The position numbers are program-made. DNA of 64,000 nucleotides from Escherichia coli O127:H6 str. E2348/69 (GTDB taxonomy: Bacteria > Pseudomonadota > Gammaproteobacteria > Enterobacterales > Enterobacteriaceae): NCBI RefSeq assembly GCF_000026545.1, contig NC_011601.1; one strand, 5' to 3'. Below, one piece after another: positions 3,001 to 6,000 of the stretch. The first letter of the stretch is position 1; the number at the start of each line of letters is the position of its first letter.

Positions 3001-6000
3001 TTGGTGTGCCCATCATGATACCAAATGCGTTTTTTTGTGGGTTATACCAGTCTATGACTTTTGCGACAGTGTCTTTATGACCCTGAATTGTCTTGTTTTT
3101 TAAATCAGTAAACTGATTACTTTGGATTCTTACAGCAACGAAATCCCGTTTTATATTGAAAATAGATAAAACTTTTTCTGTAATGTAGTTTTCTTTTATT
3201 AAATCTGCATTTCGATATGATAATAGTTTCGCTGGTGTGGGAGTGGTGGTTATTTTTCTGTTTAACAGTTTTCCTGTTTGCTCTGTTTTTATTAGAGAAT
3301 ATGATGTTTTTTCGTTGCGTAATATGTTACTAATTGATGATAAGCAGTTCTTTATGATTGGCATAATAAATTCCTTGTCTTCATATGGATGAACTTTTGA
3401 TAGGAAGTCTTATATTATATAAACTAATTGCTATCATTTTTGTAGTTAATTGTCTAGTAGAGTTGTCATTTTTTATGTTCTATTCTTATTGATTCTGTTT
3501 AGGCATAGCCATAATGCATGATGGTGTGGCGTGGCAAAGCAGAGATATACAAAGTCTGCCACATGTTTTTATGACAAAAAATTAGCGCAAGAAGACATAA
3601 AATCACCTTGCGCTAATGCTCTGTCTCAGGTCACTAATACTATCTAAGTAGTTGATTCATAGTTACTAGATATGTTGTGTTTTGTAGTATTATGCAGTCT
3701 ATTTTTTAGACTAAATATATTGTAACACATTGATATTAATGGTCTTTAGCGTTTCACGTTCAGCTTTTTTATACTAACTTGAGCGAAACGGGAAGGTAAA
3801 AAGACAAAAAGTTGTTTTTAATACCTTTAAGTGATACCAGATGGCATTGCGCCATCTGGCAGAGTGATTAACTAAATATCGCAGTAATCGAGGCACTCGC
3901 CAGAGAGTGAAAATGAACGTTAAACCCGACCATCGCGCCGCTGGCACCTTCATCGACATCAATACGTTCTACATCCAGCGCGTGAACGGTAAAAATGTAG
4001 CGATGGGTTTCGCCTTTCGGCGGCGCTGCGCCATCGTATCCGGTTTTACCAAAGTCGGTACGCGTCTGCAAAACGCCGTCTGGCATTGCTACCAGACCAG
4101 AGCCAAACCCTTGCGGTAATACGCGGGTATCAGCGGGTAAATTAACAACTACCCAGTGCCACCAGCCGGAGCCAGTTGGCGCATCCGGGTCGTAGCAGGT
4201 GACAACAAAACTTTTCGTTCCCACAGGAACATCATCCCACGCCAGATGCGGTGAAATATTATCGCCATCGTAACCCATGCCGTTAAAGACATGACGATGC
4301 GGCAGCTTATCGCCATCGCTCAGATCGTTACTGATGAGTTTCATTAGAATGCCTCCGGGAAACCTCGGCCTTCAGACCGGGGAGGAAAGGAGGCGGTTTT
4401 CCGACTAACTGTACTTTGCATAATCACATTTTCCTCTTTAGTATGTGAACACATGAAACGCGCATATAAATACCGGTTTTACCCGACAACTGAGCAGGCT
4501 GAGCTTTTAGCTCAGACGTTTGGCTGTGTGCGCTTCGTCTACAATTCCATCCTTCGTTGGCGTACCGATGCGTACTACGAGCGAAAAGAAAAGATCGGTT
4601 ATCTACAGGCCAACGCTCGCCTTACGGCGCTCAAAAAAGAGCCTGAATACATATGGCTGAATGATGTTTCCTGCGTTCCCCTCCAGCAGTCGTTGCGCCA
4701 CCAACAAGCCGCCTTTGCTAACTTCTTTGCCGGACGAGCTGCATATCCGGCTTTCAAAAGCAAACGGCACAAACAGGTGGCTGAGTTCACTGCCAGCGCG
4801 TTTAAACACCGTGACGGCGAGTTGTATATAGCAAAGAGCAAGTCGCCGCTGGATGTTCGCTGGAGTCGAGAATTACCATCTGCGCCGTCAACCGTTACCA
4901 TTTCCAGAGATAGCGCTGGCAGGTACTTTGTTTCCTGCCTGTGTGAGTTTGAACCTGTATCAATGCCTGTTACCGCTAAAACGGTCGGCATTGATGTGGG
5001 CTTAAAAGATTTATTCGTCACCGATACCGGATTCAAAACCGACAATCCCCGCCACACCGCTAAATATGCGAAGCGATTAACGCTGCTACAGCGACGTTTA
5101 AGCAGGAAGCAAAAAGGCTCAAGAAACCGTATTAAAGCCCGCTTAAAGGTCGCCCGACTCCACGCGAAAATCGCCGATTGCCGGATGGACAATCTGCACA
5201 AGTTGTCCCGCAAACTGATTAACGAAAACCAAGTTGTTTGCGTCGAATCCCTCAAGGTGAAAAACATGATCCGCAACCCGAAGCTGTCTAAAGCAATAGC
5301 TGACGCAGGCTGGAGCGAACTTGTTCGCCAGCTCCAGTACAAAGGCAAATGGGCCGGGCGGTCAGTGGTCGCCATTGACCAGTATTTACCGTCCTCAAAA
5401 TGCTGTAGTTGCTGCGGTTTCACCATGCAAAAAATGCCTCTTAATGTTCGTAAATGGCACTGCCCTGAATGCGGCGCAGACCATGATCGCGACATTAACG
5501 CGGCACGTAATATTAAAGCTGCCGGGCTGGCAGTGTTAGCCCACGGAGAGCCTGTAAACCCTGAATCGCAGCACGCGGCTTAGGTTCGGCTCGTTGAAGT
5601 GGGAATCCCCGTCATTCAGGGCGGGGAGCCGTCAAGAGCCCTCCTTTCTTGTTTGCAGAAAGTGTAGCCAGAAACCCTCACGCTGACTTCCCGTTATTGG
5701 CAAAAAAATGTTTCATCCTGCACCGCACGGTTAACCGCTGCGGTCAGACGCTGCAACTGTTGCGGGAGAATAATATAGGGCGGCATCAGGTAAATCAGTT
5801 TGCCAAAAGGCCGGATCCAGACACCCTGTTCGACAAAGAATTTTTGCAGCGCTGCCATATTCACCGGACGAGTGGTTTCGACCACGCCGATTGCCCCCAG
5901 TACGCGCACATCGGCAACCATTTCGGCGTCACAGGCGGGGGCAAGTTGCTCGCGTAGCTGCCCTTCAATAGCCGCCACCTGATGCTGCCAGTCGCCAGAT

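Follow-up and report, generated by a model that had tools for sequence, protein, structure and literature searches.

The inverted repeat between espJ and attR of prophage PP2 in Escherichia coli E2348/69 is the tI/sib hairpin of a lambda-type phage, with high confidence

Introduction

The inverted repeat lying between the effector gene espJ and the attachment site of the lambda-type prophage PP2 in the EPEC strain Escherichia coli O127:H6 str. E2348/69 is almost certainly the tI terminator, that is, the sib retroregulatory hairpin of this prophage, read in the sense of the minus strand; it is a textbook element. The repeat lies in a stretch of 64,000 nucleotides of contig NC_011601.1, called the window hereafter, the first position of which corresponds to position 768001 of NZ_LT827011.1 (E2348/69) with 100% identity. 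The original prediction, made from the sequence alone, offered two readings, an operator for espJ or a bidirectional terminator separating the cargo from the att region; it missed the identity with tI/sib, the regulatory target of which is int and not espJ. It also proposed a comparison with other lambdoid attP-proximal regions, and this comparison, when carried out, revealed that the repeat is conserved there and is the same as lambda tI/sib.

The Repeat and Its Place at attR

The repeat reads TTAGCGCAAG-N15-CTTGCGCTAA at 3582-3616, the spacer being AAGACATAAAATCAC, and it is present as a single copy in the 64-kb window even with up to two mismatches allowed. Direct reading agrees exactly with the 10-bp perfect inverted repeat and 15-bp spacer first described, and the true perfect arms are 11 bp long (3581-3591 and 3607-3617), one base more per side than was given. 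Imperfect arms extend to 19 nt (3573-3591 and 3607-3625) with a complementarity of 84%. About 1.5 perfect 10-bp repeats with a loop of 3-20 nt are expected in a shuffled 64-kb window, and the real window gives 26 k-mer-level hits, equivalent to about 12 distinct hairpins, so the repeat is statistically unremarkable by itself. Its meaning derives from near-invariant conservation among phages and not from chance statistics. The host part of the window has about 11 further perfect inverted repeats of at least 10 bp with short loops, far above the number in shuffles (13281-13309, 28228-28251, 33493-33518, 36162-36191, 38902-38936, 42834-42861, 44331-44354, 46304-46331, 48112-48175, 55405-55435 and 60671-60700). 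Terminators or REP-type elements presumably account for them.

The position first assigned to the repeat, in the region that separates the Int arm sites from espJ (3364->2711), is also correct; this is the outer margin of the P arm. The att core GCTTTTTTATACTAA of attR (POB') at 3763-3777 matches the lambda core and is followed by the host B' side and by the host gene ybhB (3868-4344, minus strand), and a lambda-type attP P arm with Int arm-type sites, recognized by alignment with lambda-type phages, occupies 3617-3762. In this arm, the P1-equivalent Int arm site CAGGTCACTAATAC begins about 10 nt from the hairpin. About 51 kb leftward, adjoining ybhC, are a second copy of the core, a P' arm identical to that of lambda, an int gene of 1071 nt and a xis gene of 219 nt. 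Because the core, the P arm and host DNA are found here and the attL partner is found near ybhC, the window contains the attR (POB') of a lambda-type prophage; judged from these junction sequences, the prophage occupies the classical attB site of lambda, with ybhC on one side and ybhB on the other. The int and xis genes are at 720891-722157 of NZ_LT827011.1 and the hairpin is at about 771582-771616, with the whole prophage of about 51 kb between them. PP2 is the name given to the espJ-bearing prophage in PMC3891560.

The products encoded by PP2 are those of a lambda-type phage. The Int protein is identical to lambda Int at 351 of 356 residues (99%), Xis is of the lambda type (Exc family, E 4e-41), the antiterminator belongs to the N_peptide family (E 1e-41), and a CII family regulator (annotated) and a CI-like S24 repressor are also encoded. 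In PP2, rusA is a pseudogene and a second antiterminator is truncated. Going by these family assignments, the partners of the lambda circuit, int, xis, N, cII and cI, are all present in PP2.

Two observations concern the side of attR that belongs to the host. At 3837-3859, just past the stop codon of ybhB, there is a perfect 9-bp inverted repeat (CCAGATGGC and GCCATCTGG, with a 5-nt loop), and it may be the terminator-like hairpin of ybhB itself, albeit without a clear T-run after it. Between ybhB and bioA there is a TnpB/InsQ-type gene for a protein of 376 amino acids (4453-5583, plus strand) with OrfB_IS605, Cas12f1-like TNB and HTH domains; in strains E2863, AR_0085 and P15-25, which are without this gene, the gap between ybhB and bioA is only about 59 nt.

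Orthology with the tI/sib Element of Lambda

By alignment, the hairpin differs from lambda 27577->27544 only in having one more A in its loop. A BLAST search of phage records found the segment comprising the P arm and the hairpin in 78 records. At the aligned position and on the int strand, the HK97 record carries the annotation "sib retroregulation site", the record of O276, a lambda derivative, "Transcription terminator tI", and the 434 record "terminator". A stretch of 50 nt (ACAGAGCATTAGCGCAAGGTGATTTT-TGTCTTCTTGCGCTAATTTTTTGTC) is invariant in the window, lambda, HK97, 434 and O276, save the one A added to the loop in the window, and it shows almost no variation in HK022, phi80, BP-4795, PPompW, a Salmonella phage and an Stx1a phage.

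The geometry is conserved as well. The distance from the att core to the hairpin is 146 nt in all five of the window, lambda, HK97, 434 and O276, and the distance from the int stop codon to the hairpin is 234 nt in lambda and likewise in E2348/69 when its attP is reassembled from attL and attR. An O157:H7 relic still has the hairpin 235 nt past the int stop, even though its lambda-family int has decayed and its att core is a different one. The lambda record places the site 'int 1' at 27583-27602, 5 nt from the lambda hairpin. The hairpin of PP2 is distal to int, on the P-arm side beyond attP and on the int-sense (minus) strand across P'OP, and integration splits the pair, leaving the hairpin at attR and int at attL.

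An Rfam scan of 3300-3900 at E<=10 gave no family, only noise (miRNA and snoRNA models at 13-18 bits against gathering thresholds of 40-100), and Rfam has no family for lambda sib. The RefSeq/PGAP annotation of the hairpin is 'none' in all E. coli genomes among the matches listed. The 'antisense RNA' feature that phage DN1 carries under its BLAST match is irrelevant, as it lies in lambda b-region DNA non-homologous to the window and stops short of the hairpin.

Conservation and Decay of the Hairpin

Viral contigs were scanned using the neighbouring Int P1 arm site as an anchor, with the hairpin left free to vary, and 138 true instances were obtained. Both 10-nt arms are exact in 122 of the 138, and TTTTTT directly follows the stem in every one of these 122 intact-arm copies. 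The loop has 13 variants of 13-16 nt across the instances, and 25 different 12-mers directly follow the T-run in the 122 copies. Beyond the U tract, lambdoid phages stay homologous for another 4-24 nt, up to a mosaic boundary (3557..3572 of the window; at 3572, 3567, 3563 or 3557, according to the phage) where cargo-specific DNA starts. A covariation test on 31 distinct variants was without power because the pairs are invariant: 95.5% of the cells are paired, 14 of the 21 pairs show no variation and the score is no higher than in shuffles. The conservation is one of sequence invariance.

The few arm changes all break pairs and are found in defective or relic copies, namely the PPompW type, two singletons and four loop-cut copies. 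In the PPompW type (L010 and nine other loci) a G->A change produces a C.A mismatch in the stem, and these copies are in defective prophages (PMC8112680). In the IMG/VR contigs L051, L117, L119 and L135, sib is cut in the loop and its 3' arm is replaced by unrelated DNA. Both kinds of copies are consistent with decay in defective prophages.

Such examples raise the question of whether the E2348/69 hairpin, too, is a decaying and functionless relic, kept in a defective prophage merely by recent descent from a lambda-like phage. This reading, unlikely though it is, is in line with the clear decay of the four loop-cut contigs and the C.A mismatch of the PPompW type (PMC8112680), and with the espJ-attR segment of strain E2863, which stands in a rearranged prophage devoid of xis. 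In E2348/69, however, the hairpin is intact, none of int, xis, N, cII and cI is lacking, and int shares 99% identity with that of lambda; moreover, by analogy with known terminators, an intact GC stem followed by U6 would terminate transcription whatever the state of the phage.

Strand, Fold and Predicted Direction of Termination

The tI/sib upper hairpin (3582..3616, minus strand) is read as RNA from 3616 to 3582, UUAGCGCAAGGUGAUUUUAUGUCUUCUUGCGCUAA, and is composed of 10 bp, a G.U pair and an inner stem of 3 bp (-17.6 kcal/mol). RNA folding and the sequence agree that, on the minus strand, the stem is directly followed by UUUUUUGU; the U6 tract (TTTTTT, then GTCA) at 3576..3581, read from the sequence, is directly 3' of the stem and provides the putative release site. 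On the plus strand the tail continues UGCUCUGUCUC, also given as TGCTCTGTCTCAGG, and the U tract is absent. The hairpin folds with -17.6 kcal/mol on the minus strand versus -13.7 kcal/mol on the plus strand.

The hairpin is part of a larger sib structure (3573..3625, minus strand), the lower stem of which is formed by GACAGAG (3625->3619) and UUUUGUC (3579->3573), 7 bp with two G.U pairs. The extended stem folds with -26.4 kcal/mol on the minus strand versus -19.2 kcal/mol on the plus strand, and its lambda equivalent with -24.3 kcal/mol. In silico, a minus-strand RNA ending within the U-run has about -21 kcal/mol, and extension to 3573 gives -26.4 to -28 kcal/mol with gain of the 7-bp lower stem. 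Because its G.U pairs are A.C mismatches in the other sense, the lower stem belongs to the minus-sense transcript and not to duplex DNA, and the folding model predicts that its formation requires RNA extending past the U tract by read-through. By analogy with lambda, the extended stem would be a substrate for RNase III.

A simple consensus terminator scan did not report the hairpin, because its apical region of 15 nt exceeds the loop limit of 3-8 nt, and the RNA was folded directly instead of relying on the scan. Since the U tract is on the minus strand only and the plus-strand fold is weaker, the hairpin has the design of a one-directional intrinsic terminator, pointing from att toward espJ, and its likeness to known terminators suggests that it is competent on the minus strand. 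Of the bidirectional terminator first proposed, a terminator at the boundary of the att module and the cargo is retained and bidirectionality is given up, the plus strand being without a U-run and folding more weakly. A hairpin stopping transcription both ways, and so separating cargo and att from each other, is very improbable: it does fold in either sense (-17.6 and -13.7 kcal/mol) and is preceded by an A-run on the plus strand, but the plus-strand tail UGCUCUGUCUC has no U tract, there is no converging plus-strand gene to be stopped (the minus strand carries both espJ and ybhB), and the HK97, O276 and 434 annotations are all single-strand.

Linkage to the int/att Module and Not to espJ

The gene espJ (2711..3364, minus strand) encodes an effector of the type III secretion system (T3SS), an ADP-ribosyltransferase. 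It is the last cargo gene before the junction and lies downstream of tI on the same strand, its start codon being 218 nt from the hairpin, and it is not part of sib. In the effector cargo upstream of espJ, cif is a C-terminally truncated pseudogene and is followed by a transposase remnant (761-1417 and 1461-1754), which, read from its translation, looks IS66-like.

The segment comprising the P arm and the hairpin is distributed far more widely than espJ. It is found in 1,508 of 5,426 complete E. coli genomes and is joined to espJ in 298 of those 1,508; most of the 78 phage records and the 1,508 genomes carry the hairpin without espJ. The cargo beside the hairpin includes espJ in the window, ea59 in lambda, stf/tfa in HK97, NleC-like genes in 434, a diguanylate cyclase or a tailspike in other prophages at ybhB, and nleA in O157:H7 and BP-4795. 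Conversely, espJ in O157:H7 is in a different prophage, and the hairpin is absent from the espJ-tccP locus there (0 matches at <=3 mismatches in 5.7 kb), the homology to the window ending at about 3419, some 55 nt upstream of the espJ ATG. Because the types of cargo are many and the espJ locus of O157:H7 is without the hairpin, the hairpin belongs to the int/att module and not to espJ. The original prediction had named absence from related espJ prophages as the observation that would refute it; the repeat is absent from that of O157:H7, and the link to espJ fails.

Expression of espJ in E2348/69 is activated about 3-fold by Ler in late log phase, as determined by microarray (PMC3891560), so some regulation upstream of espJ does exist. 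A literature search on PP2 of E2348/69 found only this Ler result for espJ and nothing on the inducibility of PP2. A symmetric inverted repeat of 11 bp, 218 nt upstream of the espJ start and on the espJ side of att, could in principle be the DNA operator at which a dimeric regulator controls the gene, as had been suggested, and the Ler activation (3-fold, PMC3891560) would suit it. This is nevertheless hardly credible: O157:H7 lacks the repeat at its espJ locus, the homology there giving out about 55 nt upstream of the ATG; unrelated or no cargo is beside it in the 78 phage records and in the 1,508 genomes as against 298 with espJ; its conserved features, the U6 tail and the G.U pairs of the lower stem, are RNA-like and strand-specific; and a spacer of 15 nt, varying in length from 13 to 16 nt, is atypical of an operator. 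It is just as hard to believe that the repeat is a part of the attP recombination substrate, serving Int, IHF, Xis or Fis as a binding or architectural site, as might be supposed from its closeness (about 5-10 nt) to P1, the outermost Int arm site, and its co-inheritance with the P arm, since it is outside the annotated Int sites of lambda and just outside the minimal attP, which spans roughly -150 to +80 from the core, and its conserved U tract and G.U lower stem are features of a transcript.

Several loci show other arrangements of these genes. In O157:H7 F8797 (L015, 1815-3097), the relic with the 235-nt distance, in which int (a pseudogene), attP and sib are unsplit, is located in an effector locus, with nleA following on the same strand, and the order sib, nleA is the same in BP-4795 (L009, 1601-1694). 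In E. coli E2863 (L005, 10255-12048), the segment from espJ through sib to attR is 100% identical to that of the window and is joined to a rearranged prophage, where sib is without a functional partner because xis has been lost and int lies directly against lysis genes in inverted orientation.

Proposed Working in the Phage Cycle

In lambda, according to what Guarneros et al. in 1982 and Schmeissner et al. in 1984 are said to have found, pI transcripts end at tI, and N-modified pL transcripts read through it, are cut and are degraded 3'->5'. The int gene of lambda is retroregulated by the downstream sib element, on which the difference in Int between pI and pL depends (PMC5300877, PMC2951348), and the transcript is processed by RNase III (Plunkett & Echols 1989, as cited in PMC5371410).

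By analogy with lambda, termination, cleavage by RNase III and an effect on Int would be expected of the tI/sib hairpin in PP2, too. In the circular or infecting phage, the hairpin would be 234 nt downstream of int, just past attP. Transcripts from the CII-dependent pI would end at the hairpin and U6 and stay stable, and Int would be made for integration. N-antiterminated pL transcripts, on the other hand, would pass the U tract and form the GACAGAG/UUUUGUC lower stem, giving a long duplex to be cut by RNase III, after which 3'->5' decay would remove the int message, that is, retroregulation. In the integrated state present in the window, recombination at the core has placed the hairpin at attR, with about 51 kb between it and int at attL. 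Because the hairpin is parked at attR, pL transcripts made on induction would be without sib, so that Int and Xis would both be made for excision, and excision would rejoin the hairpin to int and restore retroregulation.

Proposed Insulation and Possible Co-option

In the lysogen, the parked hairpin would stop minus-strand transcription coming from ybhB ahead of espJ and would insulate espJ; if transcripts from the ybhB side are terminated in this way, espJ expression would depend on its own upstream region. The position and strand of espJ are those of ea59 in the lambda b region (L002, 1-954), directly downstream of tI. As espJ occupies the slot and strand of ea59, read-through of pL across attP after excision could reach espJ.

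It is conceivable, though doubtful, that tI/sib has been co-opted, so that it shields espJ from ybhB read-through in the lysogen, lets N-modified pL transcription cross the re-formed attP and tI and run into espJ after induction and excision, and sets the 5' end and stability of that espJ transcript through RNase III cleavage at sib. An order in which sib is followed by an effector gene on the same strand recurs, with espJ here and nleA in O157:H7 and BP-4795; this is compatible with co-option and falls short of demonstrating it. Co-option, if true, would couple the expression of effectors to prophage induction.

Significance

The element is already known, a textbook regulatory site of lambda that is left unannotated by genome pipelines, and the observation is real but ordinary. 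Recognizing it as tI/sib avoids misreading it as an operator of an effector gene. In addition, the hairpin marks the end of the conserved int/att module and the start of the exchangeable effector cargo, within about 25 nt past the U tract, and because the border between module and cargo is so precise there, it is a useful landmark for delimiting cargo in the lambdoid prophages of EPEC and EHEC. Beyond correct annotation its importance is small.

Comparison with Known Systems

The closest known system is sib/tI of lambda itself (27538-27585, l-strand sense), which has in common with the PP2 element the strand relative to int, the U6 tract, the lower-stem extension and the trans partners. The differences are minor: the loop is 14 nt in lambda and 15 nt in the window (GUGAUUUUAUGUCUU), the lower stem has a G-C pair at its base in the window and an A/C mismatch in lambda, and the gene that follows downstream is the T3SS effector gene espJ in the window and ea59 in lambda. 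The sib/tI elements of HK97, HK022, 434 and phi80 have the same arms, U tract and position beside the Int P1 site as the window. The att cores and integration sites differ in HK022, phi80 and others; the loop is off by 1-2 nt and the cargo after the T-run is different in this group as a whole. The Sib antitoxin sRNAs of E. coli (ibs/sib type I toxin-antitoxin) have only the name in common with it and are an unrelated element.

Like generic Rho-independent terminators, the hairpin has a GC-rich stem with an immediate U tract on one strand. Unlike them, it has an unusually long apical region (15 nt, with an inner 3-bp stem) and a second, lower stem dependent on read-through, which would give it the additional, RNase III-mediated retroregulatory role known for lambda.
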